A DNA stretch of 64,000 nucleotides from Amphiscolops sp. MND2022 (taxonomy: Eukaryota), in contig OZ076409.1 of the NCBI GenBank assembly GCA_964187785.1, positions 26,786,001 through 26,850,000 of the forward strand, written 5' to 3'. A model generated the notes under the pieces. It saw only the letters and a program-made list of their open reading frames with translations, was not told where the DNA came from and ran no database searches. A program made the position numbers and the translations under genes. This document shows, piece by piece, positions 9,696 to 53,622 of this stretch. Numbering within the stretch: the stretch's first letter is position 1; each line of letters begins with the position of its first letter.

Positions 9696-11365
9696 TGTCG
9701 CATCCACCAAGATGCGATGGTTCCGTAGTGCAGCAGTGAAAAGGAACTCCTGAAGAGACTCAACAATAAAACATTTCAAACCTTTTAAAACTCATTTCAA
9801 TGGTATTTTCACATCGTCATGTAAATTATTTGTTTGCTTATATCGGTGAAGTTCTCTCTGGACTACTCCTTAAGTCCATAAATGATGCTTAACTTCTTTA
9901 AATCTTCTTCATAAACAACACATGTGCATAAAAATCACATAAGCATGATCAATCTACGATTTTTGATGTCACATTATGCGTCATCGTGCTACAATTAGGA
10001 TTGTGAATATACGGTGTTAAACGCTTTTCAAATATCAAAGATGAGTCATTGTACGTAAAATGGTTGTTTGAATATGCGTTATTATGCATCAAATGATTTT
10101 TCTGTATGCGTCATTGTACGTTTGAGTATACATTAAGATACGTTTTAAATTACTAGAGTATGCGGTAACATACCTTTTTATCAATTGTAACATGCATCAC
10201 TATACGGTACTACTAGTGCTGTATATGCATTAACATACGTTTATTGAAATATCATACGTATCGAATTGTGCCGTATATGCATTACTATCCGGATGTGAGG
10301 AAGATGCTCACGTGCGTTGTACGTCTTTGTGCGGTTCCAGGTCCACCGCATATGCGGGATTATGCGTTTTTCAGCAAAAGGTGTAGTTTTGAACGTCATG
10401 CAATTATACATCATTAGATAGCACTAGAGGTGTTTAATATACCATTTTACAGTATTTCTCTAGGGTCTTACAACCGATTAAACAAACGTATGTCATTATG
10501 GGAATGATATAAATAGAATTACGTGATTTGACGTTATCCTATTTTCGTGTTTTCCAGGACTACATGATACTTGTAAAAATGACTGTCATTCTTTTATATT
10601 TTGAAAAGGGGATTTCCTAAATGCAAGACACAATTGAAATAACCTCTCCAAAGTGCAGTTGTATCAATTTCTCCAGGCTCTTGCTAATACTATCAACATT
10701 TTCATTGCTTTCTCCAAGATTGGATTTTCCGTGCCGAGAACATAATTCAAATTCTTCCCCAGCAAACATAACTTGTTTTCTACTGAGTGAAATGGGAAAT
10801 AAGAGGAGTCGAAGATCAAGGAGATTAGCAACCCCATCTCCTGAGAGAGAAACGAGCGAAACTAGAGTTGACTCTCCAGGAACAGGTAATATAACTTTAA
10901 CTAATTCTAATCTAAATGTTCAAGAAAGTTTAGGTCGATTGAACTCGGAAAACCAACTAAGAGAACCCAGTCAGATTAGTGATGAGATACAAGTTTGGAC
11001 TCAGATTGTTGAGCGGAAAAATACTGAAAGAATAGAGAAAATGAGAGAAGAAATGGACAATAAACTAGAAGCAATTTTGAAGGAGATAAAACACAATAAG
11101 GGTGCTTCAATGACGACAAACCCAAGGTCTGATATAAATGAGATACAAGAACCACAACCATCGGGATCCAGGATAGATCCGCCTATAGGAGTTCACGCAT
11201 CTAATAGAGAAAATTCAGATTCTGAAAACGACGATTATCCTCTTAAAGCTTCTAAAACGAAGGATCCCAAACATCCTACTAAACCTTTGTTCCGAAGTGA
11301 ATCGGATATAGACATAAATATATATTCTGACGAAGAATCAGAAGCAGAAATAGAGGATTATCACA
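9696..11365 (+). repeat. 5' LTR (1670 bp)
   Basis: Runs TGTCGCATCC...GATTATCACA. Differs from 24821-26492 by roughly 11 substitutions and one 2-bp indel (counted by eye). TATAAA at 10508. Confidence 0.97.
9970..10300. promoter_or_regulatory. U3 array of bipartite YATGCG-N4-YRTRCG motifs with 32-33-bp phasing (repeated in the 3' LTR at ~25095-25430)
   Basis: Motif starts at 9975, 10008, 10040, 10073, 10105, then 10127, 10159, 10191, 10224. The regulatory role is inferred. Confidence 0.6.
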
Positions 11366-11383
11366 TGGTGACAGGAGCCAACC
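11366..11383 (+). other. Primer-binding site
   Basis: TGGTGACAGGAG... directly follows the LTR-terminal CA. It resembles tRNA-Leu-type PBSs; the identity of the tRNA is uncertain. Confidence 0.75.
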
Positions 11384-12466
11384 GACAGCTCCATAGACAA
11401 AGCTCACAGAAGCTAAACGACACATTAGGATCCCGCGCAGACCAAAACTCGTCAAATATGACACCGAAGCCTCTCGATCCAGTAAATCAGATTGCATTAG
11501 CAATCGAAAAATTGGCAAACAAAAATTCTCCACAGTCATTATTTCATCCTAAAAACACACTCACCTTCAATGGGAAAAATGAGAAAAATGAGAAATTCGA
11601 ATACTTTGAAGACTTATTCCACACAACACTTCGAATGCAACCAAACCTAACAGAGGAAATGAAAATCAACCATTTTCACGCACATCTAAGAGGTTTGGCT
11701 CTCAAAACATTCAAAAACATACAAAGAACCCCAAATACAATCTTAGATGATATTCTAAAGGTCTTCCGCAGAAAGTACGTCAAACCAGAGTCTAGCGCAT
11801 CTGCCAAGCATCGATTCAACAGACTCTCATTTGACCCAGAGAACCAAAAACTCCCGGATTTCCTGGAAGAACTCCAAGAAAGTGCCGATAAAGCGTTTGG
11901 GGACAACGCCCATCAAATGATAGAGAATCTACTCTACGCAAAAATGCCCCCACATCTCAAAAAGTCCATCAACCAAGCCTACCTCGAAAATGGAACATAC
12001 GATCAGATAGTTAAACATCTCGAAAGAGAGATGGAACTTAACCGTCTCGAAGCAGACGAACCCCTAGTTAAAACCCAAATGACCGCTACTAAAAAAGAAC
12101 AAAACACTGAGAAAACTAACAAAAAACCGAACGAAAAAACCAAAAAACAAACGCCTAAAACAGTACTGACAAAACACTCAAAAATAACCAATGCCGTTGT
12201 TGCAAAGAGGCAGGACACATGATGGCCGATTGCCCCAAACTAGCAAAACGACGAAAACTTGAAGAAGACCCGGATGCGGCAAAGTGTGAAAACTGCAACA
12301 CACCAGGTCACGAGGAAGAAAATTGCTACTTTGGCGCCAACATGGAAAATCGCTCACCTAAGTGGAATCTCACTGAAGCCCAAAAGAAAGTTATTGAAGA
12401 ATACAAACAAGCTCGAAAACCGATAAAACCAAAAATCGAACGCGCACAACAATCCACTTCGAAGGA

Positions 12467-12473
12467 TTTAAAC
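12467..12473 (+). other. -1 ribosomal frameshift slippery heptamer (T TTA AAC)
   Basis: The gag frame ends GAT TTA AAC TAG. The -1 frame TTT AAA CTA GAA TTG is the pol frame of ORF 12479-14236. Confidence 0.85.
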
Positions 12474-15400
12474 TAGAATTGCCACGCCTTTGCAAAAAAC
12501 CACTACAAAAATTAGGCCCTGCAGATGTCTGGCAGCATCAGCCGAGCCCAAAACCTACAAAAATCATAAACAATAAAAATGATTCAACAACACAAGAAAC
12601 TCAACCTGAAGATATATATGAACTCTTACATGACGCACCAGACAACTATTTTACACAACAACCAACTTGTCCCACAACTGACTTAACCCCAGAATCCCCA
12701 CAATCACCAAAAAATTATGTCCTAATTAAAACTTCTGGCAATGATGAAAAACAACCTCTTCTCAATGAAGACCTCACCAAACACATACAATTTCACAAGG
12801 AACGAAATTTGTCATATCTTCCGATCTCAACCTCCTTGACATTAAAACGAAAACGCCATATGTACTATATCCCAATGGACTTCGAAAAGCTTACACTTGA
12901 TGGTCTTATTGATACCGGAGCCCTTACAAGTGCGATCTCCGAACAAGATCTTAATAAAATAAAGTTGTTAGCAAATGAAGCACTTAAAGAAACTGGTCCC
13001 CCACCAAACTTCCAAATCATGGTGGCCAATGGACAACTAGAAGTTCCCATTGGTACGGTACTACTGGAATTCGAAGTGGCTGATTTCATGCTAAAAGAAA
13101 ATTTCATCATCATGAAAAATCTACCGAACCCACTGATAGGATTGTGCTTCCTCCGCAGAAACAATGCAATTTTTGATGTCAACCAAAGCATCTTAACATT
13201 TCCCTATCTGTCAATGCAACTTCAACCCGATACCCAAACAGCAATACGCCAAGCAACACCATTATTTGCCGAAAACACCTATACCTTACAACCAGGCGAA
13301 GCCCTTGCAATAGCAAGCAGAATGCCTCACCTAATGGACCATAATGCCACTGGCATAGTTACCCCATCACAACAATACGAAAATCATGATAGCATTTTCA
13401 TTACTGCATCACTCAGCACTGTTAACAACAATGCTATCGGTTATCAAATTATCAACTTTTCAGAATTACCCCATACAATCACAATGGATACCCATTTAGC
13501 AGATTTTAAGATACTAACCCCAGAGCAAATCAAGCATATACAACCAGTTGATCCAGCGTTACTATCGTTCATGATACAATACGAGGAAACAACTGAAGTC
13601 CACATAAATGAACTCCTTAAAGTACCACAACAACATTCAGACCAAGAAACATACTGGTTCCCTACATCTGAAGAACGAGGCGACCCTACAACATACACCC
13701 CAATTCAGCAACGTATATATAATGAACTTCTCGAACTCGAAGAACTCGAGAAACTAAACCCACATGATAGTGAAACCTCCAGAACAGCATTTCTCTCACA
13801 CTTTGATTGGTCTGACACAACACTCAGCTCAGATGAACGCAAAGCAATTGAAGAAATCCTCATTGAGTTTCACGATATTTTTGCCAGACATCGTTTTGAT
13901 ATTGGCATAAATCGTGAATTCAAAGTAAAACTCACACCCAACGATGACAGACCTGCTTATAGCCAAAGTCTACCGACTCCAATTAACCTCAAAGATGATA
14001 TCACTGTGGAACTCGCACTTCTACACAAGTATGGCATCATAACAACTCTACCCTTCTCAAAATACGCAAGCCCAATCTTTGCACAACGCAAACCTAACGG
14101 GCGACTCAGACTTCTAGTCGACCTACGAAAAATCAACAACTTAATCACAGAAGATTACGCCAACAACAACCACCCGGTAAGCACATTATCGGATGCAGCC
14201 CAACATATGGCGGGAAAAAACTTTTCTGTAAACTAGACTGCTCCCAGGCTTACCACTGCCTCCAAATGGCAGATTATCAGTCCATACAGATGCTCGCTTT
14301 TAACTTTGCAAGCAGAACATTCGCATACCGTAGGCTTGCCCAGGGTCTCAGCAGATCCCTTTCAGCATTTTCGAGTTTTATGAGAGACTACCTAGACAAA
14401 GCGATTAAAGCAGACCAATGTGCCCAATATGTCGATGACATAGGCATAGCAGCCAACGACACCAAACAGTTGTGTCTTAACATCAAAACAGTGTTTGAAT
14501 GCATCCGCAATGCAGGATTAAAACTCTCAATGTCTAAATGTCATTTCGGAGTCAAACAAGTCGACTTTCTGGGACGTACAATCACCCCAGATGGAGTCGC
14601 CCCACAATCCGACAAGGTTAAAGACTTCCTCTCAAAGCTTCGTTTTCCTAAATCAAAAAAGGCATTACAAAGGTATATCGGATTTTTGAATTATTACCGA
14701 AACTACATTCCTCGCCTTTCAGAACGTCTAACCCCGTTTTTTAAACTCCTCAAAGAAACTTCCAAGTTCTATGTACCAACAAATTTAGTCGACGACTTCA
14801 CAAGTTTAAACAAACTTCTCGAAAATTCCTGCCAACTGGCACTGAAACAACCACTAAAACACAAACAGCTCATAGTCATGTCTGATGCTAGTTTTACTGC
14901 TGCGGGCTATGCAATCATGACAGAAGATGACCCGAACCAGAAGTTACAATCCAAACGAAAAACCTATGCACCCATAGCGTTTGGATCCAAAACATTCAAT
15001 CCCACACAAACAAAGATGTCAATCTACGCAAAAGAATTCCTTTCCATATACTTCGCATTTGTGGAATTTGGACACCTCATGTGGGGCAACACCTTCCCGG
15101 TAATCGTGTTTATCGACAATCGCTCGGTAACCCGATTCTTTCAAACAAAAATGATTCCTCCAGCACTCTGGAACGCCTGCGATTACGTATTGCAATATAA
15201 TTTTGTCATTGCCCACGTTGCTGGTTCCTTGAATACTGCAGCAGATTTTTTATCCAGAACAGAAGTAAACCCAAAAGAAAAGCTAGAAATGACTATCCGC
15301 AATGACATCTACACAAAGGCAATAGAAGTCCACATCCAATCATCAGGTATCGTAGAAGAAGAACAAATCTACATTCTCCCCGATGATGAAATAGACGAGA

Positions 15401-17334
15401 ATCAACTATGGGAAGAAAAACAAAATGTACGTACACAAGCTCGAAATGAAACCCACAACGAACCAGAAAATGACATCTCTGAACTACAACATTTCCACAA
15501 ACCCACATCGGGTTTGATCTCGGTATCATCAGGATACTTCAGAGACAATGCAAGGATTCGCCTCGAACAAAATAATGACATTGTTCTCAGAAATCTCAGA
15601 GCGAAAATAGAGGGCGAACCCTTTGACGAAAACGATTTAGCATCTGACTATCGATACCACCACTATCTGCAAAACATAACACGGATTGAGATAAAAAAAG
15701 AAGTCCTTACCAGGAAATACTATACGGATACTGGAACAGTATCACATTACCAAATTCTCCTTCCGATTCAACTTGTAGACGAATTCCTCCAAGCCCTACA
15801 TGGTCATAATTCAAACCACCCAGGTATCACGAAAATGATACAAGAAGCAAGACAAAAATATTACTATCCTTGTATGGCAAAGTACATAAAAAAGTGGGTC
15901 AGTAACTGTCAAACCTGCATCCAAACCAAACGTATTAACAATGACCTCCTAAGGACAGAACTCCTTAATTGTCCAGAATGGGATCTAGGTCCGGAAGACA
16001 TCCTACAGATGGATATCCTACCAAACCTCCCTCCGAGCGGAGGATATGATCATATTATCACAGCCATAGATGTCTTCTCGAGGTATTTGTTCGCATATCC
16101 CGTAACTCGTATCACTGCAACAGCAGTATCAAGAGTCGTCATGGATATATTATGCAAACACACCTACCTACCAACGACAATAATCACGGATTTAGGAACC
16201 CAGTTCAACGCACAGGTGACTCAAGAAATTGCAGCAGTACTAGGAATTTAACTTAAACGTGCCACAATGAAACATGCCCAAACAATAGGACTCCTCGAGA
16301 GAACCCATGCCTCAGTGAAAACACATCTGAAAGCTGCAACAGGCGAATTCAGAAATAATTGGCATAAATATCTCCCATTGGCAGTCCTCAACCACAATAC
16401 AACATACCATGCATCACTCGGCTGTGAACCTTCACGAGTTTTCCATGGTAGAATACCACATAATATCCTCGACTACAAACTCGGATATAACCCTAACCCA
16501 CGATACCAACCACAGTCAGATGTGGCAGAAGAAATTCAAAAACGAATGAAAATCCTCTTGGATCAAACTAAGAAGAACATTATGCAATCGTATCTCAAAT
16601 ACAAGGCTTACTATGATCGAAAAGCCAAAGCAGCTCCGCTTGAAACGACGGACTATTGTTACATTCTTAACCCAAAAGCAGATACTCAAGCGACAAAAAT
16701 ACCATTCCGAGAATTCAGATGGTGTGGTCCATATAAAGTAGAAAAAGTACTCCCTAACAATAATTATATTGTCCGGAGACTTGGAACTAACAAAACGCAA
16801 TTACTACACAGGATCCGTTTACGGAAATTCACCCCGCAAGCCCCATTAGCAGACATTTTCGTTCGCGAAACTGATTGGCAAAAAGATGACCAAATGCCTA
16901 TAGCAAATGATGACCTATATGCCCAATCATGGAACACAAATTTTGGGTCTAACCCGTTCGAAGATGGTCCTTCAGAATTCACACAAGACACTGAAGACGT
17001 TGAATATACTCCAATTCAAACACCTGATGATAACCGCCCTCCCTCCCCAGGATCTTCAAAAAATAAGGAGGGGAGCCCAGTGGAACAGACCACTGAACCA
17101 AATCAAGATTACGACAACCATGAAAATGAAATACCACAACACATCAATGAAGATAATCAAAATACCCAAAAAACTTAAGAAAAACCAAATAGTACACCAG
17201 TTGACGATATCCCAAAAACCCCAGAAAATTCACAAAATACCCCATTGCAAGAAGAACCCATAAATACTCGTGGCGAAAAATATAACCTACGCCCCAACCC
17301 CAACCCAAACTTTTCACACTCGTACAGATACTAA
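12467..17334 (+). pseudogene. pol: Pol polyprotein (protease, RT, RNase H, integrase), disrupted
   Basis: LIDTGA protease; RLLVDLRKIN and YVDD RT; IVMSDAS RNase H; HHCC plus D-D-E integrase; terminal YNLRP. Lesions: a frameshift in the A-run at ~14215 and in-frame TAA codons at 16249 and 17176. Confidence 0.95.
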
Positions 17335-17547
17335 AAACAAATCACTGACAAATTTTCCTTTAAACTCGAGGACTTGAAACTCATAATACTATCCTCCTTG
17401 TCAGCATTCCAAAGAAATTGCAATAAATACATACAAACGAAGATAACGTAAATCAAGTTTATAAAACGAGTTAACAGAGTCTGAAAGTTCAAAATTGCAT
17501 CAATCCTTCTTTTCTCTGGTCTTCTTGACTTTTCCCTTCCTACCTTT

Positions 17548-20500
17548 TTATACTCCGGGCTCCATCAGTGTAGCAGGAGTCACTTTAATAGGCATTAGTT
17601 TGGGAGACAGCCCAGATCCAGGTGAACTAGTGGTGCTCGACGAATGACTTACACTGGGTGTAGTAGCTTCCAGAAATATAGGCAAACCTTCACTCAGCAG
17701 CACAGACCTCTTGTAAGCCGCCTCGAATTTCTCTAACATAGATGACATCCGGACCCCACTTCCACGCAAAAAACTCCAGATGGAAAACTTCTTGTCGTTG
17801 ATTAATTCACGTCCTCGCCCAAGCAATCGGAAGATTCTTCCCACCGATTTAGAGTCTCCATACAGACTAGAGACGTTAGGCACAGTGACATAAGATAACT
17901 GCAAGCTCCTAACCACTGATTCAAAGGCATCATGGTCAAATTTTAACTCTGGAATAGAAACCTCGAATTTGGCAGGGATTGTGATCACAGGCGGTAGACA
18001 CAAGCAAGCAACACGAAATACACGTGATAGCTCAGTCCGACTCTGCATCTCATAATGAGAACCTAAGTACAAAACCCAATCACATCGGGGGACATTGTCG
18101 TTAGCTCGTAATTTAGTAACAAAGGAGCGGTACTGGCTCACTGCCTTGGTCTTGTCCCCTGCTGAAATTACACCTGTAGAGACGAAGTAACTTGTAAGAT
18201 CCTCAATAGCAATGGTATAATTTTGTTCCGAACCATCCAGAATAACAGCATGGTCAAAACAAGAAAGTCCTCGAAGCAGTGTTGACTTTAAAATATCATG
18301 GGACAACAATATACTGCAAAATGACTTGCAGAAAGCCATGGATTGTTCAACAAATCGACTAGGACGAGGCAGCCGACTGGAGGTAACGAGATAGTGGAAA
18401 TCAGGATTAAGAGCAAACTCAGCTGGAGTTTTCAGAGGTAATTCAGTGCCCGACAAATCGATCTTCAAATATGAATCCCAATTCGAATTGTCTCCAAGGA
18501 AACTGTCCGGTAGCAAGTTTTGTAACTGACTATACACAAAGACGGTGAATTGGTTGAAAATCCTGAAACCTTGATTCATTTCTCCTTGTACCTCGGCGAA
18601 CGCGAAGTTGTCTGAAACAAACTTATGAATACAGCTATACAATTTTTAGCATGAAATATAGAAGTGTGTACACTTCACTATACCGTTCAAAAACTTCAAC
18701 TATGAGGTGTTACGCGAAAATCCTAGCTATTTACTCGGTATCCCCGCAAAAAATCTCAGAAATATATACCGCAAAATGCGAGATGTTGCCATTGTGTATA
18801 CGGTAATACACAAATTTTTTGTGATTCCATTCTCACAACGTTTCAAATTTGTTTATGCGCAACCATACGGAAAAGGCTAGTTCTTATGCGCCAATATGCG
18901 TGTTTTCCGTGTCATTCAACAAGCAATTACAATAGCATTATCACAAGACAATTAAGCGTCACCAAGCGAATTAGAGAAGAATGCATATACGTAGTTCTAC
19001 GGAACTCAAACCCTCACCATTCGTTAACATACGGAACTTGGAATCTGATTATGCGGCGCTGTGCGGAACTTGGAATCTGATTATGCGGCGCTGTGCGGAA
19101 CTTGGAATCTGATTATGCGGCGCTGTGCGGAACTTGGAATCTGATTATGCGGCGCTGTGCGGAATTTGTATTCTGGTTACGCAGTATTATCCGGAATTTG
19201 AATTCTATATATGCAGTACTACGCGGAATTCGAAATACAGTCGTACGCTACTATGCGGAATTCGAACTACAGTCGTACGCTACTATGCGGAATGAAATGG
19301 AGAGTATATAAAGTTGTGCAAAATTCAGATTTGAGCTGGACGGCGTAATGAAAGACATGACATGACGTATATGCGCTGAAGTACGGAATTTAGAAACCCG
19401 AGAGTGAAACATGTAGATCCCAATATGGAATTAAAAACCACACGTATTTGGGCTACGGAACTAACTTGCGACCTTCGCGACAGAGGAAGACTTTACGAAT
19501 AGATACCAGGGTTTACAAAACAAACAAGATAGTCTTAAATACAAATCATGGAAAGCATTTGAAAAATAAGAGGGAAATAAAAGTTCACTAACAGTGATCA
19601 ATGGCACATCAGATTACGAATAAACGCGCTAAGTACGCGGTGTCCAATCGGAAACACTCATCTAGGGAAGTAGGCTATAACACAAACGAAAAGTAACCTA
19701 TTTGGAAGACGTTTTTCGGAAGTGGGTGTGAAATTTCAACACTTACTTTTCTCATGTGAAATCGGTATTCCGGCATTCGTGACACCTGTGCCAGGTGGTC
19801 CTTGATTCTGTCCCAATTAGTGGAAAAACATTCAATCAAAGCAGATGCTTCAGCCAGGTTGTACTCCAGAGTTAATATGGACTGAAAAAAGAAATTGGTC
19901 AACGACACTCATGGCTTGTTTTGTGTTAGAAACTCGGAAGTAAAACACTACCTTGTGAAGGACAGGCAGTGAATGGACCCAATCCCGATCGAGTGCAGTG
20001 CGTAATTTTAGGAGCAGGTAATCGATAATTGTTCGGAAATCGTGACGCTCAATTATTTTGGCAGTTGGGGTAGCCAAACACTTTTCAAACTCAGCAGGAC
20101 TAAAGCTGTTGACAATGCTGGGTTTCGGATCACAATTCAGTACAGAGATTAAACAACTGCTAAGCTTCTCTTCCATATCAACCAAACAAATGCAATTGGG
20201 TGGAGACTCAAATAAACTCAAGAGAGAAGATATCAAGATGAGAATTTTCTTAGGGACTAGCACGCCCCGAGGACCTGTCCCAATACAAACTCGCTGGAAA
20301 ATGTTCCCAGACCAAAAGGATAAGAAGAGGAAAGAGTGGGTCGGGGATCGTTGCAGGACTAGCGAGTAATTTTCAGAAGAAGTAATGTGGGTAATGCAAT
20401 AACTGATGAGTCCACGGAACATATATACCAGCATTCCCTGAAACATAGGCTAGTGGTCAATTTTTGATCATAGTTAGAAGGGGTGAATGTGCAAAAGATG

Positions 20501-22237
20501 AGGTTTAGTTACTATATGTAAATTGCAAAATGTAGTAAATACTTACGAAGATTCGTGAGCTCTCCCAAATGAAGGGCTGGAAATCACTGGTCGTAGAAGT
20601 ATGTTGCAAAATCTCGTCGTGAATTCCGATTAGACTAGCAAGGGGTCCTCCATGTTTCAACCCAAATTCCAAAACCCGCAATTGAGCCAACACAATCTCG
20701 ACCGGACTGGAGTCACCTTTTATGTCTGGTAGCCTGTCTTGCCCCACAAGCAACCTTCGAGGACCAAGTTGGGGTGGTATTGGGTAAGTGTCCTTAGCTG
20801 TCCTTTTTGCTTCTTGTAAAGCAATACCTTGCAACTCTACCTCTTCACGGTCATAAAGGGCCAAACCTGGTGTTTCCATCCGGATTCTATGTTCTTTTAC
20901 GAGATGGGATTCTGTCTTGTAGTGCGATATCATTTCCAAGGGTCCTCGGCTCATTAGGGATAATTCAAGTTTGCACACCCTACACCACCATTTGTAAGGG
21001 GTTTTTTCTTTGTCAATCGGCCCAGTTGCAGAAAATTTCAATACTGGGTGTTTTCTGAACATACTTTCAGTCAAGCAATACCGAGGCCTTGGTCGCTTGG
21101 CTGGTCTCAGAGGATTTTCTTCGGGATCAAATTCGGTTGTGTTCCCCCGCTCAAGGGCGCCTCGATCGGTACTAGTTGGGCAATGTGGAGAGAGTTCTGT
21201 GCTGGGTCCAGGTGGATTTTCAACGACTGAGACAGTAAGACCGGGGGACAGAACGTTTTCCCCTGACAAGAATGATTGGGGAATGCGACTCAACACGTTG
21301 GTTAAAGCTATGACCTCATTTCGAGTAATGCTGATGCTGGCATTGGTCACTGGTGGTGAGGAAGTATTGAGCTCCGCCGACAAAGATTGAGGAGCTTGGA
21401 AAATCTCGTTTGTGTCCCCCATAAGAGTAGTTTGTCCCATCGGTAAATGGTCGCTGATAAATGAGTCAATTCGTTGATCCACAGGTAAGTACTGTGAAAA
21501 TCGGGGGGAATTAGTCCGTGATGAAATAGCAGCAGCAAGACTATCCATGAGTTGAGAAGTGAATGTATCCTGTAAGGCAGAAGTGGAAGCAATAGGAGGT
21601 GTAGCGCTTTGGGTTTCGTGAGGCTGTTCGCCCGCTTCAGGATTTTCCTCAGAATTTTCAGGAAGAACACTGCATTCTTGGGTTCCGAAGGGGTTCTGTG
21701 TGTCCACAACGGCTTCTTGTTCTACTCCTTCTTGTGCAGGGCGGACAAGAGTTGGAGGTGGGATGCTGTATACGGAAGGCTCAGACTGATTAGGCGAAAC
21801 AACTTGGAGGGGAGCATAAACCTTCTCAGGAGACGGCTGAGGCGATTTCTCCACGATCGCGAGTTTACCTAAAATGATTGGTTTATAAATCCAAACAGAC
21901 AAATTGAAATTTTTGACTTAGATCTGCTGTGGAAACCTTTTTACCGGACGCGGTGATTTGAATAGAAAAAGCGGAAGTCAAACTAATTTGAGACCGGAAG
22001 TAGAAATATTTCCAAGACAAAATTCTGATCTGAGTATTCTCTTGATCGCAAAATCGGTGAATTCATAGTCCGGCCAACTATGTTATTCTTAACAAATTCG
22101 AAACTGGAAGAAATGAACCAAGACAAAAGTTCAAACTCACCTGGAGAATCAGCTGTCGGGGACTTGTATCCCCAAGATCGGGTCCTCATTCTGGAAACGA
22201 ACTCCTGGGAAAGACTCCGTCCTCTATTGTCACTCAT
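17548..22237 (-). CDS. Antisense spliced accessory gene: hAT-transposase-derived protein with a BED-like zinc finger
   Basis: Predicted exons 22237-22141, 21868-20547, 20437-19952, 19881-19747, unresolved small exon(s) at ~19675-19465, and a last exon at ~18611-17548. The first three joins are phase-compatible GT-AG introns. Motifs: KWWCRVCK...SHYKTESH, and LLRGLSCFD...AVSQYRSF...ELSRVFRVACLCL. Confidence 0.72.
19000..19290. repeat. 32-bp minisatellite inside the predicted intron of the antisense gene
   Basis: Four perfect copies of CGGAACTTGGAATCTGATTATGCGGCGCTGTG (19032-19159), with in-phase degenerate units at 19000, 19160, 19192, 19224 and 19256. Confidence 0.95.
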
Positions 22238-22559
22238 GATGCTGAATTGGAAACCCTCAGTGATCTCCAATGACCCAATTAATAATTTAATGGAATGAGG
22301 TTTGGAGGACAAACTGAATAGACTAATAAAAGGACTAGAGTAGAATTTTATAAAAGTATAAATGTGTATTAAAACTGACAAAACCAATATAGGAAGGCGT
22401 GGCGATCTAAACGAAAGGCAAAGAGCAAATGCGCTCAGAAATTGTACTGGAATTGGTAGTACGCTCTAATATGATTGGCCAATTAGAATGTCAGTCACTT
22501 CTGCCAGAGTGTCCGATTACGTAATTGGCATATTAACAACACATGTGAAAGCAAAAGTA

Positions 22560-22980
22560 AATAGACCTGCGGTAATATACAAACTTACTACATACGCTAA
22601 TACGGTGATCTGCAAAATACCAGCATTCAATGTACAGCAACATGCGAACTTTGGATTGCAATTATGCGCAATTATGCGGATTCACAAATGGACAATATAC
22701 AGCAACATGCGGACTTTAGATTGCAATCACACGCAATTATGCGGATTCACAAATGGACAATATACAGCAACATACGTTTTTCAGATTACAACTATGCGTA
22801 ACTATGCGGATTTACGGATGAACAATATGCTGCAAAATGCGGATTTGCAGTTGCAATTATACGTAAATACACAAATTTACAGATGAGCAATATGCGGCTG
22901 CACATGTACTTGTGACTTACAAACATACGGCAATATGCGGAAATATGATTGTAGTCTATGCGTCAATATGCGGAATAAAG
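22560..22980. repeat. Degenerate 32-bp repeat array with a 64-bp higher-order period, between the divergent accessory genes
   Basis: TATGCG-CAAT-TATGCG units. The block GCAATTATGCGGATTCACAAATGGACAATATACAGCAACAT is duplicated 64 bp apart. Confidence 0.8.
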
Positions 22981-23835
22981 AGAAAAAGAGCACGTGCTGG
23001 TATGCAGTATGAAAGCGAAGAAGAATTGAATGACACGTAATCATTTGAGGAATTAAAACAAACAACTTCACTCTGACGATCGAATGAGTCATGGCCAGCA
23101 CGCGGTAGCATGCGGATCCTAGTATTGATGTATAAGCAGTCTTAAGTACTTTGGAAGAAAGAGATTGTGGGACGGCGTCCGAAGCAATATACACAGAGAT
23201 GCATATTAAAATGCATTGAGTCAACCCGAATGGATAGACCTCTACCAATCTACCTCGTTGTGAGAGGCTATCACAGGTACCTATCTTAAAAGTTTGTGCC
23301 TTTTCAAAACGCGGGACATCGAATGATATACTATGTCGCGATCATGTGATCTTTAAAAAAAAACTTGGTAAAACATTTAAACATTCATGCAATATGTTCA
23401 GCCTTGATATGAGTTTCATTGACGCTTCTAAATAAAATTATATTGAGCAGTTAATTCATTCATTTTTTGTGGCATCCTAGGTGAAGATATTTGTTTACAT
23501 CATATTTAAATGTAACTGAAACAAAACTAGAAAGATCAAAAGGAAACTGCCGTTGAAAGATATGACAAACGAAGTCACACTCATTTTGTTTATTTACATA
23601 TGTGGAAGAAACCAAAACCTAACCCCTCTTTCATACGGTGACCCGCCACCTACATCCCATATAAGGTGTTGCTAGACTCACGAAATCATGACACCCAATT
23701 TTTTGGCGGGGTTCCGTCTAAATCAAGTCAAACTGAAAAGAAGATTCACCATATGGTCTTTACAATTTCATAAATCAGTCGCCTTGTAAAACTTTTGAAA
23801 ACCTGAAAAGCTAAATAGTTCTCCGCAAATCAAAA

Positions 23836-24864
23836 ATGAACAAGCTTCAATTCGACATCGATGAAGACTCACTATACTCCCCTATCTCCCCTGATGTGGT
23901 GGACATCTCGAGCGGGTCAGAAGGTGAGTTCTCCATTGCCCCCGGAGACGTGACCCAACTCAACGATAGATTCCGTATAGACACAACTGGGAGCAATTTA
24001 ATGTCAGCATTTATGGGAGCGGCAACAGCCACTTTGTACCCTGATACAGAAATGTCGCCAAGACAGGACCCAGCAACGATCGCATCTGGAACTCAGTTGG
24101 AGAGAGAACTTATGGACCTAATTGAAGTCCCTCAGAACGGACTAATGGAATCTCCAGGTTCGTTTGAAGACAGCGAGTTTGAGGAGGGGAATCTCTTCCC
24201 ATGGACCATGGGCGTTGGCCCCGAAAGAACTACAAACAACTATGGTCGTCCCGCCGCAAGGGTCCTCCCTACTCTGAGGACAAATTCCAGCGACAGTGGG
24301 ATCTTACCCCGTCCAATCCCGATCTTTCCGCCAAATTACAGGCAAGAACAAACAGGCTTTCAACAACGAACAACAAGGGAGCCAATGGAACAAGAGGTAC
24401 GAAATAATACAATCCCACAACAAAGAACAACGCGAGAAAACTTCACAGGGTTTAATTTATCCCCAATGCTGTTCCCCCTCAACATTAGTGGATTAGACAG
24501 CGGAACTCAGCCTTTGGAACAGTTGATGCAACCCACTGTTCAACTGGGGTTTCCGTTCAACACGACCCACAGCACGAACTCACTCCTAATTCCGGCCCAA
24601 GAAAGACATAGCATCCGGTTGATACCCACTGTTATGGCCAACGTCGCAGGATATTGTGAACTCTGCGGAAAATGCTATGATCAAAGCGCTCTGGAGACTC
24701 TGGGAGAGTATCTGGTTGCAACGGAGTACGAGGGTGAAACAGTCAAGGAAAGGACAATCAGATCAAGGGCATTCATCCACGGGTTCGAAGCAGCATTGTT
24801 CCTTTTTAAAAATGCGGGACTGTCGCATCCACCAAGATGCGATGGTTCCGTAGTGCAGCAGTGA
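23836..24864 (+). CDS. Accessory sense ORF (342 aa) of unknown function: acidic, disordered N-terminus and a C-terminal CxxC helical domain
   Basis: Intact ORF with ATG in an AAAAATG context. It reads through the PPT and stops 44 nt inside the 3' LTR; AATAAA follows at 24890. Confidence 0.7.
   Translation: MNKLQFDIDEDSLYSPISPDVVDISSGSEGEFSIAPGDVTQLNDRFRIDTTGSNLMSAFMGAATATLYPDTEMSPRQDPATIASGTQLERELMDLIEVPQNGLMESPGSFEDSEFEEGNLFPWTMGVGPERTTNNYGRPAARVLPTLRTNSSDSGILPRPIPIFPPNYRQEQTGFQQRTTREPMEQEVRNNTIPQQRTTRENFTGFNLSPMLFPLNISGLDSGTQPLEQLMQPTVQLGFPFNTTHSTNSLLIPAQERHSIRLIPTVMANVAGYCELCGKCYDQSALETLGEYLVATEYEGETVKERTIRSRAFIHGFEAALFLFKNAGLSHPPRCDGSVVQQ
24808..24820 (+). other. Degenerate polypurine tract
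   Basis: AAAAATGCGGGAC lies immediately before the 3' LTR TG and overlaps the coding sequence of ORF 23836-24864. Confidence 0.5.
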
Positions 24865-26492
24865 AAAGGAACTCCTGAAGAGACTCAACAATAAAACATT
24901 TCAAACCTTTTAAAACTCATTTCAATGGTATTTTCACATCGTCATGTAAATTATTTGTTTGCTTATATCGGTGAAGTTCTCTCTGAACTACTCCTTAAGT
25001 CCATAAATGATGCTTAACTTCTTTAAACCTTCTTCATAAACAACACATGTGCATAAAAATCACATAAGCATGATCAATCTACGATTTTTGATGTCACATT
25101 ATGCGTCATCGTGCTACAATTAGGATTGTGAATATACGGTGTTAAACGCTTTTCAAATATCAAAGATGAGTCATTGTACGTAAAATGGTTGTTTGAATAT
25201 GCGTTATTATGCATCAAATGATTTTTCTGTATGCGTCATTATACGTTTGAGTATACATTAAGATACGTTTTAAATTACTAGAGTATGCGGTAACATACCT
25301 TTTTATCAATTGTAACATGCATCACTATACGGTACTACTAGTGCTGTATATGCATTAACATACGTTTTTATTGAAATATCATACGGATCGAATTGTGCCG
25401 TATATGCATTACTATCCGGATGTGAGGAAGATGCTCACGTGCGTTGTACGTCTTTGTGCGGTTCCAGGTCCACCGCATATGCGGGATTATGCGTTTTTCA
25501 GCAAAAGGTGTAGTTTTGAACGTCATGCAATTATACATCATTAGATAGCACTAGAGGTGTTTAATATACCATTTTACAGTATTTCTCTAGGGTCTTACGA
25601 CCGATTAAACAAACGTATGTCATTATGGGAATGATATAAATAGAATTACGTGATTTGACGTTATCCTATTTTTGTGTTTTCCAGGACTACATGATACTTG
25701 TAAAAATGACTGTCATTCTTTTATATTTTGAAAAGGGGATTTCCTAAATGCAAGACACAATTGAAATAACCTCTCCAAAGTGCAGTTGTATCAATTTCTC
25801 CAGGCTCTTGCTAATACTATCAACATTTTCATTGCTTTCTCCAAGATTGGATTTTCCGTGCCGAGAACATAATTCAAATTCTTCCCCAGCAAACATAACT
25901 TGTTTTCTACTGAGTGAAATGGGAAATAAGAGGAGTCGAAGATCAAGGAGATTAGCAACCCCATCTCCTGAGAGAGAAACGAGCGAAACTAGAGTTGACT
26001 CTCCAGGAACAGGTAATATAACTTTAACTAATTCTAACCTAAATGTTCAAGAAAGTTTAGGTGGATTGAACTCGGAAAACCAACTAAGAGAACCCAGTCA
26101 GATTAGTGATGAGATACAAGTTTGGACTCAGATTGTTGAGCGGAAAAATACTGAAAGAATAGAGAAAATGAGAGAAGAAATGGACAATAAACTAGAAGCA
26201 ATTTTGAAGGAGATAAAACACAATAAGGGTGCTTCAATGACGACAAACCCAAGGTCTGATATAAATGAGATACAAGAACCACAACCATCGGGATCCAGGA
26301 TAGATCCGCCTATAGGAGTTCACGCATGTAATAGAGAAAATTCAGATTCTGAAAACGACGATTATCCTCTTGAAGCTTCTAAAACGAAGGATCCCAAACA
26401 TCCTACTAAACCCTTGTTCCGAAGTGAATCGGATATAGACATAAATATATATTCTGACGAAGAATCAGAAGCAGAAATAGAGGATTATCACA
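24821..26492 (+). repeat. 3' LTR (1672 bp)
   Basis: Near-identical to 9696-11365 and followed by the TSD GTAAA. Confidence 0.97.
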
Positions 26493-33724: not shown

Positions 33725-34904
33725 CATGTACAGGCAAAAGCGCCCCTGACAAAAGCGCCCTAGTCAAAACCGCCCCTGACAAAAGCGCCCCAGTCAAAAG
33801 CGCCCATTTTACACAGACAAAAGCGCCCCAGACAAAAGCGCCCCAACCAGATTCGTCTTGCGAATAATTGTAATGATTTCACACCTAATTTCTATTAACT
33901 GCACATAATTAATTGGCCGTACGCGTAGCCGGATATTACCGAGGGTGACAATTTCACACGTGTTTAAAAGCAGTCAACTTGTTAATTCAGAAGACGCTTT
34001 TCTGAGGCAAGCTGATTCATCTGTTAGGAAATTCATTGCAACTACCACCCAAATGGAAATCACCGCTCTTAAAAGCAATAAAAACCAAGACATTATGACC
34101 CACTGTGGGTATTGATACAGGAAAGCAAGGGACCTCAAAACGGTACGGAGTCATGGAGGTGTTTGAATTAAAACGGCCGGGGCCGAATTAACGTTGGCAA
34201 CGAGATCAAAAGTGTTAGTGAGCATTGCCAAGAGCCACAAACCGAAAAAGTAGAAGAGAAATTATTCCGTGCTGAACTTAAAACACGAGCAGTGTTAACC
34301 GAAGAAAAACCCAAGAGTGTTATTTTGGCAGCTCAGCGATTTCTTACCGTCGAGTCAGGACCGACCTTTTGAGATGAACTTTTGTTTTTTTGTTGTTGTT
34401 ATTGTGTCTTGTTGAAAAAAATTGACCAAAATTTCAAACTATCCCGTGCATGTCTAAAACTGTGCATGCTACAGCTCTGAGAATTTGTCACCATAAAGAG
34501 AGGTTTTTTAAATAAAAAATTCTTCTCTCCCACCCCAACCCGGAACCCTGATAACGGGGGGGGGGTGTTTCCGGGTCATCACATTGAATGAGACTTTTTC
34601 ATGAAAAATTTCCATGTTAGTTTCGAACTCGATGACTAATAGTCAACAACTAAAGTTTTGACCACTGAGCTATCCAGTCTTAATAGGATGAGTTTTGAAT
34701 TGACTTATAAAATGAGTCATTTGATTCAAACAATTTCATTACGTAATCGACATTTCAATAACGAGCATTGAACCAAGACACTTAATTAGTTCGTGAGACA
34801 AAATCAAGGCAATTAAATCCTGAGACGCATTCAATTGGGGCGCTTTTGACTTGGGCGCTTTTGACTGGGGCGCTTTTGTCTGGGGCGCTTTTGTCTAGGT
34901 AACC
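33725..34904 (+). mobile_element. Internally deleted Mutator-like (MULE) DNA transposon
   Basis: 9-bp TSD TTCAAAAAC (33716-33724 and 34905-34913). Inverted subterminal arrays of 15-bp CAAAAGCGCCCC units. Internal FLYWCH remnant. Confidence 0.8.
34053..34372 (+). pseudogene. FLYWCH zinc-finger N-terminus of a MULE transposase
   Basis: MEITALKSNKNQDIMTHCGY*YRKARDLK/GTESWRCLN*NGRGRI...SEHCQEP...AELKTRA, with stops and a frameshift. Confidence 0.7.
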
Positions 34905-36773: not shown

Positions 36774-39700
36774 TCAGTATTTTCAATATTTTACCGTCTT
36801 TCGGCGATAATTTTTACATGAACATTATACCAAAAAATTTTTCTGATTTTTCTCAATCCCATGATAGTTTTTGTTTGTAGAACTCACCAAGAAAACAAAA
36901 ATGGGAGCACTTTTCCGTTCAGTAAAATTGGAAATACATGTATTGAGATAGGAATTTCAGACTTACACTTGGTAAAACTCCCATCAATATACATTTTCCA
37001 AAAATATCCAAAATCAAATTTCATCTTTGTTTTCGAGATTTGAGTGTATCTGCAAGGCAAAATTTATCAAAAAATATTTATTGGATCACATATATTTTCT
37101 CAAAAATTAGCAATTTCAAATATTTTCTTCTCAAAATCACATGTTTCTATCTTCGGAAACAGTGATGGTTTAAATTTCGAACAAAAACCATGGTATTCAT
37201 AGCAAAAATTCAAGAATCTTTTGTTTTTACCAAATTGAACCATATCGAATAGTTTTGGAGATATGAGACTGTAAAATTAGCCTTTTTGAGCAGCCAGGTC
37301 GCATTTTTTCTTCACACAACTGTACAACAAACAACTACTGACAAGCAACTTCGAAAAGTTTGAAATTTAAAATTGAAAGTGAACCCGGAAAAAATACAAA
37401 ATTGATTGAGTCATAATCGTCAAACTTGGTTTTGATTACTCCTCAAAACTACTAATTTTGTAAAATTGAGAAATCGGGAATAACTGTATATCCATTGTGC
37501 AATTCAGCAATTTAATAAGATAGTACAAAAGGTTGAAATTTCAATATTTCACAATGATTATGCAGTTATTTCCTTAAGGACTAGATGTTATACCGACAAT
37601 ATCTGAGTCACACAGACCAATAAAGTTTGTATTACCTGTTGAGAGCCGTGATATGTTGCGCCTTGAGTTATCTCAGCGACCATATGTTTTTGTGCCAATA
37701 ACTGACAAAATTTACACGTAAAAATTCCATAAAATTCCAAAAAATTTAGCTCTTTCTACCTGTTCTAGATTCGTGCTATACATTCCTTTGGAAAAACTTT
37801 AGATCTATCCTTCCAGAAGTCTCCTAAGTAGCTCATTGATTTGTAATTTGAGCTCTATTGATATTCATACAAAACAAAGCTCTCTGAAAATAGAACCCAA
37901 GTTGCAAAAGACTCAATTTTATTGGCATTTCGACACTTTTAATTATCGGCACTTGTCAAAACGAGTTCATTTGTTTCGTTTAAATATGTATTTGAAAAAG
38001 TACAAATACAGATGCTATGAACCTCATTGCTTTGTTGTTGAAATCTGTGGAACTTACAAAATAGTTTTTGAAAAACTATTTTGTGAGTATAAATTTGAAA
38101 CATATGGCTTTGAGTATGACTTTGACTCTGATATGGAATATGACCAGGAAGTGTAAATTAGGATGCATACATTTCTTTAACCAAATGACCTTACACTGAG
38201 TTTTAATCTCAAACTTGGAAAACAGTTACCGAATAACAAGACAGAAACCTCTCAAATCGGTGCCCACGAAGAAAGCTCAATAAACGGCAAACTTTTCAAA
38301 ATTGTTAGCGATGAATTGTTTTCATAAAAAAACCGAATAATCTATGTGCCAAGAAAACCAAGTGAGGCCCTTTGAGCTCAAAAGTGTTTTTTTTTCAGCT
38401 TAAAATGTCAAAAAAAAACATAAAGGACAACCTTTTAATGAAATTGACAATGCCAAAATCTAGACAATTCCAAAAAGAACAAATGAGGAACAATTTGCCG
38501 TATTGTAGTTTTGTATATCATGTAAAAAAGAAAACTCAAAAGGAGGACTTTTCTGCTATCATTAGTACTCCGTAGATCTTAGGCTGACAATTGTAAAAGG
38601 TGTACGTTTCCGAATGAAAATTGTCATCACAAAATACTTGCCATTGTAAGAGTCGGGCACTTTTTCTTACAAAAAGCAGCGAATGGCAACGCATCAATTT
38701 GACGAACTTGAGATTTCTGCCAAGGAGATTTTTAAGGAATTTAGACTTTAAGGAAAACTTCCTGTTCGTGGTATACAGCCAGGTGTATTTTTCTGAACGA
38801 GCTCGAAACAATTGAAACTATAGTTTGTAGTAGGATTGCGATTCAATGGTTTTGAAATGTGAGAAAGACTATTGAAGGAGCCTAACTATTTGAAGAAGAA
38901 GCTATTCTCTTTGTAAACAAACACAATCTTTCTCAAAATCAAAACTAGAAAAAAGTTTGGTTTCACCTTAGATCAGTCGGACATTCCAAAAACTATTTTT
39001 TTCTGGAGAAGACATTTTTTACCGAACGAAAACTACCTCAACGAACCAGCAGTCTTTCAAAGAAGTAACAATGAGTTCGAAAACAGAATTCAGGAAAAAT
39101 ATAAAAGTGTATGCAGATATCATTAAAACTGAAAAGAACTAATCAGAAACAGCTAAGGTCGGTAGACGGCCTAAAGATCAAGATACACAGAAGATATTTT
39201 AAATCTACCCAGGTCCATTTTTGTGAGCGTTCAGAAAAATTTCACAGAGGCCAATAACATTCCAATTCTAGAAAGGATTCATCTTGACCGAAACATCGAA
39301 AAAAAACAAAAATAACTGAAAGAATAAAAAATCCGGTAAAAATTTGATTTTCGAAAAAAATATGTAGCGCATTGCCGAAACACTCAGGCTTGCAGAACGC
39401 TTTTTGTTTCCTAAAGACATCAGCAAACTAAATAAGGAAACTCATCGGTGATATGAAATATATTTTCCCGAAAAGTCGCACAGTACTGAAAAAACTTCAA
39501 AGAAGTGTCCCTTGGACAAAATCCAGCTTTTCAAATGGAACAAGTTTGACCAGCGGAAGATTCGAAACATTGAACTTCTCTTTCCCAGATCCTGTTTCCC
39601 GCCTCTCAGTATTTTCAATATTTTACCGTCTTTCGGCGATAATTTTTACATGAACATTTTACCAAAAAATTTTTCTGATTTTTCTCAATCCCATGATAGT

Positions 39701-46749: not shown

Positions 46750-48464
46750 TGTGAAATTTTTGATTCTTTGGCGTTTCAGAAAAAAACCCATCTTTTTTGC
46801 GCGAATCACAGGTTATAGATCGAACTAAATTTCAGACATTCCACAATGTGTAAATCAGTAAAAACAGCTGAAAAGGCGAATTTAGCGTATTTCGTTAATG
46901 ATTTTGGCAAACGGAATAATAGAAAGTGTGAACTCGATTGTTTGAGTAATATAGAATCGACGTCAACAACGAAATTGTTCGAATTAGCTAAGTTAGAATC
47001 GACTGCTTCGAACGAATTTTGCTAAGTCTTTATTTTGGACGGAAACAGAGATCTGAGGGAAAAAAGGCCACCCTCCCTTTTTGGGAAGGACTTATCCGAT
47101 CAAGCTGAAAATTGGCTTGCATTAACTAGAGGTGTTAACTCAACTTTCGACTCGGAGTACTCGACCTCGTACCTCCCCCCAGTCCCGAGCTATTAGCACC
47201 GGAAGTGACCCAGGTCCACCCCCTACGAACTCGTCGGCCAAGTACGGAAAAAGTCGAATTATACATAGAATTGATAGCCCATATGATATTAGGCCGTTTG
47301 CGCACATTTTCGGACACCCACGACGTGTGTAGGAGGAGTACGGACCCTAAGTAAATAAACCCCGAATGTTATGTAAATAGCCAGCGGACGACCCCAAGAT
47401 CATGAAACTTACCCAAGATGTTCACCTAGCGACCCTAAGTAATATACATGAAAGATACATTGATCGATCCACTACGCGCGGAGTAATGTTTGTTTAAGGC
47501 ATGCGGGACCGGACGCACGGGCCCGGCCGATAAATGACATTTGACCTTGGCTTGTAATATATCAAACGAACCGGAATAACGAATGTAGTTGATTGCGATT
47601 GTGAACGGATCAGTATTCATAACCCATGCGGGGGTAACCGCCTTAAGTAAACAAACAATACGCATAACATGTAACTCGGGACCCGTTGACCCTAGGATGT
47701 TATAACTTGGTATATAGCAAACTTGGATGAGAGCCAATAACTTCAAGGTCACCGATGGACCTCAAGGTCATTTTAGATGCAACCCCTGAGGAGATAGGAA
47801 AACGTACATTAAAACATGTAAATCAGCGTCTGTAAGTGATAATTTATGCAATTCAGTCAGGCGGAACGATTCGCGATGTATTTCACCTAGGATGATAGAA
47901 AAGTACCCCTTACGCGTAGAGAACATGTATACCATGTAGTTGAAGGTCATTGAGCAATTTCTTCGATATTAAAAAAATCTTGGGTGACTTGGATTATTAT
48001 TGAAATGTGGACTTCGATCAAGATGATGAAAGATTTATCGTTGGCGGCAAGGAATGTTTAGTCGAAGTATAATTAGACGCGTTCACTATGCCATAAAAGG
48101 AATAGTAAACATGAAGGTAAACTCATGCAGATTTAAGACGCCGACGCCCTGTATGTAACGAAAATGTCAAGTATGATAGAAAGTCAAGATGAGATGACCA
48201 GAAACACGTGCGAAGAACAAATATAACTGAGGCGGCATTAGAACATAATTGAATAGACAGAACCGAGTTAGAAGGCTGGGAGCAAGTTGAGTCTCGCGGA
48301 GACAAGATACTTCTTCGGATAAATACTCACGCTTCTCGACAACCGAGTTAGAGAGCTAGAATTCAGTTGAGCCTCTGGACGGGGGCAAGAGATTCGAACT
48401 GGCTGGAGTAACTGGTCGTCGTTAACTCCGGGAGTCAGTGACAGAAACTGTACAAGTCCGGGAC
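46750..48464 (+). repeat. LTR1, 3'-truncated by a 444-bp deletion that also removes the PBS and gag start
   Basis: The junction GGGAC|GCGAG joins the equivalents of 53197 and 53642, with AC microhomology. Confidence 0.9.
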
Positions 48465-53495: not shown

Positions 53496-53622
53496 GTTGC
53501 GCATCTGGGTGGGCTTTGCTTTGCTTTCTTTTACTGGTTACGTTTTACAACATTTGTTTCGAGTTCTGGATTCCAACTTGAACATATATTCGTAGAGTTG
53601 GATATTATACAAGGATTTCATT

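Follow-up and report, generated by a model that had tools for sequence, protein, structure and literature searches.

The retrotransposon and its genes

The window, which is the whole 64,000-nucleotide stretch of Amphiscolops sp. MND2022 DNA that was analysed, contains a Ty3/Gypsy LTR retrotransposon. The assignment to Ty3/Gypsy is based on LTRs bounded by TG...CA, a 5 bp target duplication (GTAAA), a primer-binding site that starts at 11366 with TGG, and a gag gene followed by the PR-RT-RNase H-integrase order (Pfam, in a broken copy). The LTR pair is 99.2% identical. Both gag and pol are frameshifted in the present copy, with an in-frame stop at 16249-16251. The element also contains an antisense gene, a sense ORF and tandem arrays of a short bipartite motif, laid out as follows.

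9696..26492, + strand: Ty3/Gypsy LTR retrotransposon, 16,797 bp, with paired LTRs; ends and target duplication read off the sequence
9696..11365, + strand: 5′ LTR (TG...CA), with the U3 array, a TATA-like box at 10508 and the gag start
9975..10410, + strand: array 1 (U3, the oldest), about 12 bipartite units; assigned to U3 by reference to the TATA-like box
10621..17178, + strand: gag and PR-RT-RNase H-integrase, from ORFs and Pfam
17548..18611, − strand: antisense exon 6, predicted helical region, 186 homologue clusters
18612..19592, − strand: intron 5, 981 nt, containing array 2; splice sites read from the sequence, exon borders backed by homologues
18701..19385, + strand: array 2 (intron 5), near-perfect 32-bp core at 19032-19179, degenerate flanks
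19593..19674, − strand: antisense exon 5, 82 nt, with an in-frame stop at 19611-19609 in the present copy
19747..19881, − strand: antisense exon 4, from splice reading and homologues
19952..20437, − strand: antisense exon 3, predicted RNase H-like core without the first catalytic Asp
20547..21868, − strand: antisense exon 2, low-complexity N-terminus and then a zinc finger
about 20993-20904, − strand: zinc finger C-x2-C-x16-H-x5-H (exon 2)
22141..22237, − strand: putative antisense exon 1, ATG at 22237 and TATA-like box at about 22352; placed by splice signals and phase only
22566..23115, + strand: array 3 (divergent intergenic region), core 22631-23007
23836..24864, + strand: sense ORF, 342 aa, extending 44 nt into the 3′ LTR
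24821..26492, + strand: 3′ LTR, from LTR pairing
25100..25540, + strand: copy of array 1 in the 3′ LTR (fourth array copy)

No DNA loci related to the element were found in the metagenome contigs, viral contigs and prokaryote genomes that were searched. A bacterial locus that matched the array pattern was a single three-unit array in its genome and was judged coincidental.

The antisense protein

The antisense gene is read as six exons. A five-exon model was out of frame, and the sixth exon was revealed by homologues. A search for longer, full-length homologues of the protein gave none. The gene accompanies sister copies of the element: among the matches listed, and with contigs paired by their length alone, an exon-3 homologue was present on 14 of 15 contigs that carry the sense ORF and on 9 of 13 other pol contigs. 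In three read-through homologues (3 of 179 screened proteins) intron 5 is just 22-41 codons or so, too short for an array, and the intron array is therefore not universal.

The zinc finger is better conserved than its surroundings, with 77% identity over residues 36-73 against 53% elsewhere (43 homologues), and its CCHH residues are intact in 37 of the 43. A feature-level lead (Atlas, score 0.85) points to Spin-doc/BED fingers, without a Pfam BED match. A homodimer prediction for the finger and adjacent region, in which the alignment was not used, scored 0.01 and counts neither way.

The remainder of the protein is predicted to have the fold and domain order of a hAT transposase. The model of exon 3 (pLDDT 65) has an RNase H-like core preceded by a long helix, as in hAT transposases. 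Its first-ranked structure among 48,161 chains was Hermes 153-263, with a modest Z of 6.8 that is tied within 1 Z unit with integrase cores (rmsd 3.5, 101 residues aligned). For exon 6 (pLDDT 82), ranked with VIA-align, Hermes 368-609 was also first among 48,161 chains, again at a modest Z (4.8, rmsd 8.0, 181 residues aligned). The next-ranked chains, small helical bundles, aligned over at most 116 residues (43-87), none of them near 181, yet their Z was tied within 1 unit. The two exons, folded separately, thus match Hermes in colinear order, 153-263 and then 368-609. Foldseek returned no match at E ≤ 0.001 for either exon, and the matches listed for exon 6 did not include Hermes. Pfam and PDB profile searches gave no hAT or BED family match. 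A hAT identity had been proposed ahead of both structure searches.

Asp at both predicted catalytic positions, the ends of strands 1 and 4 as placed from secondary structure, is present in none of 55 family members. The Glu position was not located, and a catalytic DDE triad was not recovered. The absence of the Asp pair from all 55 members indicates a protein that is conserved without apparent catalysis, and the predicted identity of the antisense product is a hAT-type transposase that is catalytically dead. No hAT TIRs were found around the gene, only three scattered 12-mer inverted near-matches between its flanks.

The phased arrays

The original prediction described two YATGCG-like hexamers 10 bp apart, repeated every 32-33 bp in three arrays. 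The half-site is better described as YRTRCG, with an A two bases 5′ of each half. The strict form, YRTRCR-N4-YRTRCG, has 25 matches against 0.3 expected in the 64-kb window, all on the + strand and all within the arrays of the element. They lie in U3 of both LTRs, in the antisense-gene intron 5 and between the divergent genes. A looser form occurs 32 times on the + strand and twice on the − strand. The motif was not found in the 47 kb of the window beyond the element, and within the element it is restricted to non-coding parts. One array precedes the LTR TATA-like box, another lies upstream of the antisense gene, and the third is within that gene's intron.

The half-site pairs of array 1 begin at 9975, 10008, 10040, 10073 and 10105, in agreement with the earlier coordinates, and their 32/33 bp spacing is broken by intervals of 22, 52 and 42 bp. 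In array 2 the pairs recur every 32 bp over 19050-19274. The fading on both sides of this array was correctly noted earlier, while its extent, given as 19000-19290, is revised to about 18700-19385. Spacings of 32 and 33 bp alternate between the pairs of array 3 (22631-22991), which is thus a 65-bp higher-order repeat of 32+33 units.

The periodicity held against shuffled controls. In every array, half-sites paired at 10 bp, and likewise at 32/33 bp, more often than in any of 5000 dinucleotide shuffles. When an equal number of half-sites was scattered randomly, no trial out of 20000 reached the 32/33-bp pair count of any array, and the 10-bp pair count was reached in 5, 0 and 0 trials out of 20000; the shuffle and placement figures are optimistic, as the pattern was picked after the sequence had been viewed. 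As a cross-check, matrices were built from two arrays at a time; the array left out gave 13.4, 15.9 and 6.5 hits/kb, the background 0.14-0.21/kb. The half-sites follow a phase of 10.7-10.9 bp (R 0.62-0.77, null 95th percentile 0.50-0.55).

It had also been claimed that the spacers diverged while the motif persisted. This is correct for U3, where conservation is 0.69 in half-sites and 0.35 in spacers (2 of 200000 column permutations). The intergenic units (357 of 200000) and the pooled arrays (0 of 200000) agree with it, whereas the intron units (19787 of 200000) and recent tandem copies do not. The young repeat cores have no excess in three lag tests (Fisher p 0.33-0.46) or in a fourth (0.086); p is 0.032 for intron lag 128 and 0.006 for U3. 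Taken together, the phase statistics, the conservation of motif over spacer in the old array and the simulations of neutral decay described below support selected, helically phased sites. The further claim that a multimeric protein binds them remains putative.

Candidate binders and alternative explanations

The element itself encodes a candidate binder of the arrays, which the original prediction had not named. The arrays are likely to be landing sites for this zinc-finger protein. There is, in our estimate, about an even chance that a captured, catalytically dead hAT-like protein binds them and regulates its own retrotransposon in the manner of plant VANC or TnpA. Two fingers of one oligomer would read both half-sites, one helical turn apart, and additional subunits would occupy the next pair three turns further along the same DNA face. 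Occupancy may keep the LTR and the divergent promoter open, through activation or anti-silencing, and the protein would then feed back on its own gene. Local tandem duplication would renew the arrays, with the spacers drifting afterwards.

A host factor is the main rival to a self-encoded binder. The arrays would then be enhancers for a transcription factor or insulator protein of the host, GCM-like or other, that binds direct repeats, and the transposase-like protein would have another role, such as integration targeting. LTR enhancers with multimerised host-factor sites are commonplace, selection on the motif leaves the identity of the binder open, and some relatives retain the gene with a short intron 5. 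The GCM-type site suggested earlier is a poor fit: ATGCGG occurs 17 times in the arrays, but the octamer published for GCM, ATGCGGGT (PMC2441803, source available in part), is essentially missing, with ATGCGGG found once across the three arrays. The absence of the motif from the rest of the window also argues against a host factor, and the strict 10 + 22/23 geometry would be unusual for a monomeric one. On balance a host factor is rather unlikely, though it has a real share of the probability. The methylation sensitivity that was proposed alongside it is unsupported. The CpG observed/expected ratio of 0.94 in the window suggests little DNA methylation, and decay of the motif CG is lopsided (CA 12, TG 2), unlike methyl-C deamination.

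The arrays may instead be neutral minisatellites, one ancestral unit copied to three places, in which motif and phase persist through ancestry and half-site slippage. All arrays share one orientation, and slippage between half-sites would by itself yield breaks of 22 and 42 bp. The arrays were previously called otherwise dissimilar, which slightly overstates the case, since identity between arrays is 0.33-0.39 in the columns outside the half-sites and 0.27 when these are permuted (3, 7 and 36 of 2000 permutations); this weak similarity, like the even decay in the young cores, favours a neutral origin. Nor do the variants of sister copies avoid the half-sites: two of the four distinct intergenic-array changes among four sister copies fall within half-sites, where about 37% are expected, so this comparison of motif and spacer lends no support to selection. 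Against such an origin, neutral decay with motif re-anchoring produced the 0.34 gap between half-sites and spacers in 0 of 1500 runs at each of 7 rates, and the C of the motif is retained in 58 of 62 half-sites amid variable neighbours. Neutral minisatellites are thus considered improbable.

A similarly low probability is given to DNA mechanics, by which alternating pyrimidine-purine hexamers at the helical period would position or exclude nucleosomes without a specific reader. The 10.7-10.9 bp period is suited to this, and transitions that preserve YR alternation make up 69 of the 79 deviations from TATGCG, compared with 8 of 11 differences between the LTRs and roughly half at most in other duplications. 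However, the arrays have strong strand polarity with T and C near-invariant, and bending should have no need of a two-on, one-off pattern.

It is quite improbable that the motif acts in the genomic RNA, in export, packaging or localisation. The arrays share the + strand, so that the full-length transcript would contain all three, and Cer1 is reported to encode an RNA-export protein (PMC10309623). However, the folding of the three arrays is ordinary (z −0.97, −0.23 and +0.99), an Rfam search gave no match, and a 10.7-base phase would be without purpose in single-stranded RNA. Least probable is binding by the product of the 342-aa sense ORF, whether unaided or together with the transposase-like protein: the ORF adjoins array 3, is retained in the 20 members of its cluster and has an acidic, activator-like N-terminus, a P/Q/S/T-rich middle and a CxxC close to the C-terminus, but a Pfam search gave no match, and so no known DNA-binding domain, and no significant resemblance to the finger was seen (E 0.28).

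Comparison with known systems

The proposed self-encoded binder has its closest counterparts among DNA transposons; the comparisons below draw on the available portions of the cited sources. VANC, the protein of the VANDAL elements (Arabidopsis MuDR), binds motifs that lie in non-coding tandem repeats (PMC5735166). As in VANDAL, there is an extra element-encoded protein, a short motif in non-coding tandem repeats and arrays renewed by duplication (PMC5735166, PMC10398659). The present carrier differs in being a Gypsy element rather than a MuDR DNA transposon; its protein is predicted to be hAT-like, its motif is bipartite and phased, and CpG is not depleted; its finger is conserved across subfamilies rather than diverging, and binding and anti-silencing are only proposed here. 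Spm TnpA and the AtMu1 transposase, both sequence-specific activators, resemble the proposed case as transposase-derived regulators of their own element in which catalysis is lost or bypassed, but they stay in their own DNA-transposon family or move to the host, whereas here the regulator would be the cargo of a retrotransposon, an element of another class (bioRxiv 10.64898/2026.08.24.746577).

The BED fingers of Hermes bind subterminal repeats cooperatively and require exact phasing (PMC10368747). The predicted order of finger, RNase H core, helical insertion and C-terminal part is that of Hermes (PMC10368747; PDB 8EDG), and both systems have phased short repeats for several fingers, with reading by fingers proposed in the present case. 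Unlike Hermes, the element has no catalytic Asp pair or TIRs, its motif is different, and its sites lie at promoters and in an intron instead of at transposon ends. The Hermes target is a quasi-palindrome of AAGT, whereas the half-sites here are direct repeats.

Retand (Tat), a plant Gypsy element, also has a long region from pol to the 3′ LTR, an antisense, possibly DNA-binding gene and tandem arrays (PMC11963269). Its TRP28 domain (PF04195) was not found in three large antisense ORFs of the present element (Pfam, E ≤ 0.1). The Retand arrays are described as family-specific, variable and of unknown function, without a shared phased motif, and the same source, in its available part, gives no established function for the antisense genes and tandem arrays of large Gypsy elements (PMC11963269). 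In the literature searched, a self-encoded sequence-specific regulator with repeat-array targets was found only for plant DNA transposons. No relevant report of a hAT-derived gene carried by an LTR element was found in that literature, which covered few subscription papers or repeat databases, and an earlier annotation may exist.

Because the element combines a candidate protein with a defined target of 16 bp and a precise geometry, the question can be put to the test. A broader history is put forward tentatively, at somewhat short of an even chance. A Gypsy lineage may have captured a hAT transposase, retained it in catalytically dead form in many subfamilies and recreated the transposase's phased subterminal-repeat code de novo in the LTR, the intron and the divergent promoter. 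The outcome would be a private, self-amplifying transcription or anti-silencing circuit that operates without DNA methylation. If true, one class of mobile element would here have domesticated an enzyme belonging to another.

Element structure

The arrays lie in a Gypsy LTR retrotransposon flanked by the target duplication GTAAA, with LTRs that are bounded by TG...CA and are 99.2% identical; its gag, protease, RT, RNase H and integrase follow the Gypsy order (Pfam). In the present copy both gag and pol are frameshifted, and integrase contains a stop. The region from pol to the 3′ LTR holds an antisense gene with introns and, divergent from it, a sense ORF. The antisense gene is predicted from splice signals, phase and homologues to have six exons, about 1,060 codons in total; this copy has a single in-frame stop. 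The host is a eukaryote having spliceosomal introns and is probably an animal.

Features of the element (window coordinates)
9696-26492, Gypsy LTR retrotransposon, 16,797 bp (LTR pair, ends, target duplication)
22237-22141, minus strand, antisense gene exon 1
21868-20547, minus strand, antisense gene exon 2
20437-19952, minus strand, antisense gene exon 3
19881-19747, minus strand, antisense gene exon 4
19674-19593, minus strand, antisense gene exon 5, with the in-frame stop
18611-17548, minus strand, antisense gene exon 6

The gag frame begins within the 1.67-kb LTR and continues across the primer-binding site (10621-11365, 25748-26492), which leaves a 250-codon gag stub in the 3′ LTR. The final codons of the sense ORF also fall within the LTR.

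Elsewhere in the window, 46750-58375 is a tandem non-autonomous LTR element, with three 1.7-kb LTR-like repeats and a 5-kb internal region, present twice, that lacks pol and has a weak PNMA/gag-like ORF. A 2.83-kb unit is present three times in tandem, about 98% identical, at 36774-45271. Two small MITE-like elements (33731-34899, 59915-60866) have inverted termini of 15-bp subrepeats, and BEL/Pao fragments with Peptidase_A17 and an integrase zinc-binding domain occupy 61823-63458 (minus strand).

Phased motif arrays

The original prediction of one phased bipartite motif in three arrays is upheld. Counts of pairs 10 and 32/33 bp apart exceed all 5000 shuffles in each array. The arrays are located about 140 bp 5′ of the TATA-like box of the LTR (U3), upstream of the antisense gene (intergenic) and within it (intron 5). 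Over the 64 kb the motif YRTRCR-N4-YRTRCG is matched 25 times where 0.30 would be expected, always on the plus strand and within the arrays. Because the pattern was picked after looking at the sequence, a matrix was trained on two arrays and the third scanned, giving 13.4, 15.9 and 6.5 hits/kb against a background of 0.14-0.21/kb. In every array the best period of half-site (hexamer) starts (10.7, 10.8 and 10.9 bp) stands above the null; register breaks in U3 measure 22, 52 and 42 bp. After removal of two perfect duplicates from the intron, 31 in-register units remain; in these, 58 of 62 half-sites retain the C, an A stands two bases upstream of each half-site, and transitions account for 69 of 79 departures from the motif.

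A TATATAAA box on the plus strand (19305-19312), immediately past the intron array core, is a possible internal promoter opposing the antisense gene. An acidobacterial intergenic region (L001, 7966-8081) contains three TATGCRTCATTATGCG units placed every 32/33 bp, their spacers diverged. These nearly equal the U3 unit, and that genome has no second array of the kind; the resemblance is probably coincidence.

Probable selection and possible shared ancestry of the arrays

The arrays are of unequal age. The intron array has a near-perfect 32-bp core and the intergenic array a 65-bp higher-order repeat, while Tandem Repeats Finder did not detect the phased units of U3. The claim that the motif persists as spacers diverge stands for U3, where identity between units is 0.69 in half-sites and 0.35 in other columns (2 of 200000 permutations). 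It fails in the intron units taken alone, where the half-site excess is not significant (19787 of 200000), and in young repeat copies, which decay evenly without such an excess. Four sister copies, compared via a spurious ORF, lend it no support, two of four distinct changes in the intergenic array falling in half-sites. Non-motif columns are slightly similar among arrays (0.33-0.39 versus 0.27), so the arrays may share an ancestral unit or a longer motif. The motif is very probably under selection.

Alternative readings of the arrays

Binding by a host factor is unlikely, though the strongest of the alternatives. The GCM-type site first proposed fits poorly: the GCM octamer, given as ATGCGGGT in part of PMC2441803, is nearly absent, and a factor other than GCM is possible. 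The suggested methylation sensitivity is likewise unlikely, with CpG o/e at 0.94 and CG decaying 12 times to CA and twice to TG, a skew that could alternatively reflect the G-to-A bias of reverse transcription. It is improbable that the arrays are a neutral minisatellite; under neutral decay with re-anchoring, the U3 half-site/spacer gap was reached in 0 of 1500 simulations at each of seven rates. Action through DNA mechanics has an equally low probability. An RNA-level signal is marginally less probable again, array folding being unremarkable, and the sense ORF product is the least probable binder.

The antisense gene and its family

The fold predicted for exon 3 resembles RNase H in topology, and comparison with 48,161 chains puts the Hermes hAT transposase at the top (Z 6.8, residues 153-263). 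Hermes also ranks first for exon 6 (Z 4.8, residues 368-609), as the sole row covering the whole model; both scores are modest and other rows tie. Sequence profiles and Foldseek gave no significant match to the protein, and the hAT-like assignment is based on the colinearity of the two first ranks and on hAT having been the guess stated before the searches. The protein is not classed with the active hAT transposases. In each of the 55 aligned sequences, at least one of the two predicted catalytic positions lacks Asp. The exon 2 finger (C-x2-C-x16-H-x5-H) is 77% identical across 43 homologues, while the remainder is 53% identical. P0121 and P0125, distant exon 6 homologues (23-25% identity), seem to extend upstream without an intron there and are possible free transposase relatives or donors.

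The family comprises 186 clusters at 50% identity. Among the contigs listed, matched by their length, an exon-3 homologue occurs on 14 of 15 that have the sense ORF and on 9 of 13 others with pol, as shared contigs rather than proven adjacency, and some of these homologues are just 66-67% identical. The antisense gene is therefore a long-standing cargo of this Gypsy lineage, rather than a one-off insertion. Intron 5 is short in three homologues that read through it, so the intron array is subfamily-specific. The parts consulted of reports on giant Gypsy elements (PMC6431247) and rotifer ORF3s (PMC5408684) contain no comparable cargo. Among the papers listed by the literature searches, none was relevant to a hAT-derived gene carried by an LTR element. 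The same layout is found in Retand elements, although these carry TRP28 (PMC11963269, in part).

Proposed mechanism

The antisense-gene protein is a plausible candidate binder that the initial reading missed, and the chances that it binds the arrays are put at about even. Passages of PMC10368747 describe Hermes as an octamer in which BED fingers bind cooperatively to short subterminal repeats, with exact phasing needed. A dead hAT-like oligomer could recognise half-sites separated by one turn and pairs separated by three. VANC binds motifs within tandem repeats of non-coding regions (parts of PMC5735166 and PMC10398659), and TnpA or AtMu1 offers a further parallel for activation or anti-silencing (bioRxiv 10.64898/2026.08.24.746577, in part). 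The system of this element would work similarly to VANC or TnpA but is a member of neither. The direction of any regulatory effect is a guess. Occupancy of the arrays may lead to activation or anti-silencing with feedback, as with VANC, TnpA and AtMu1.
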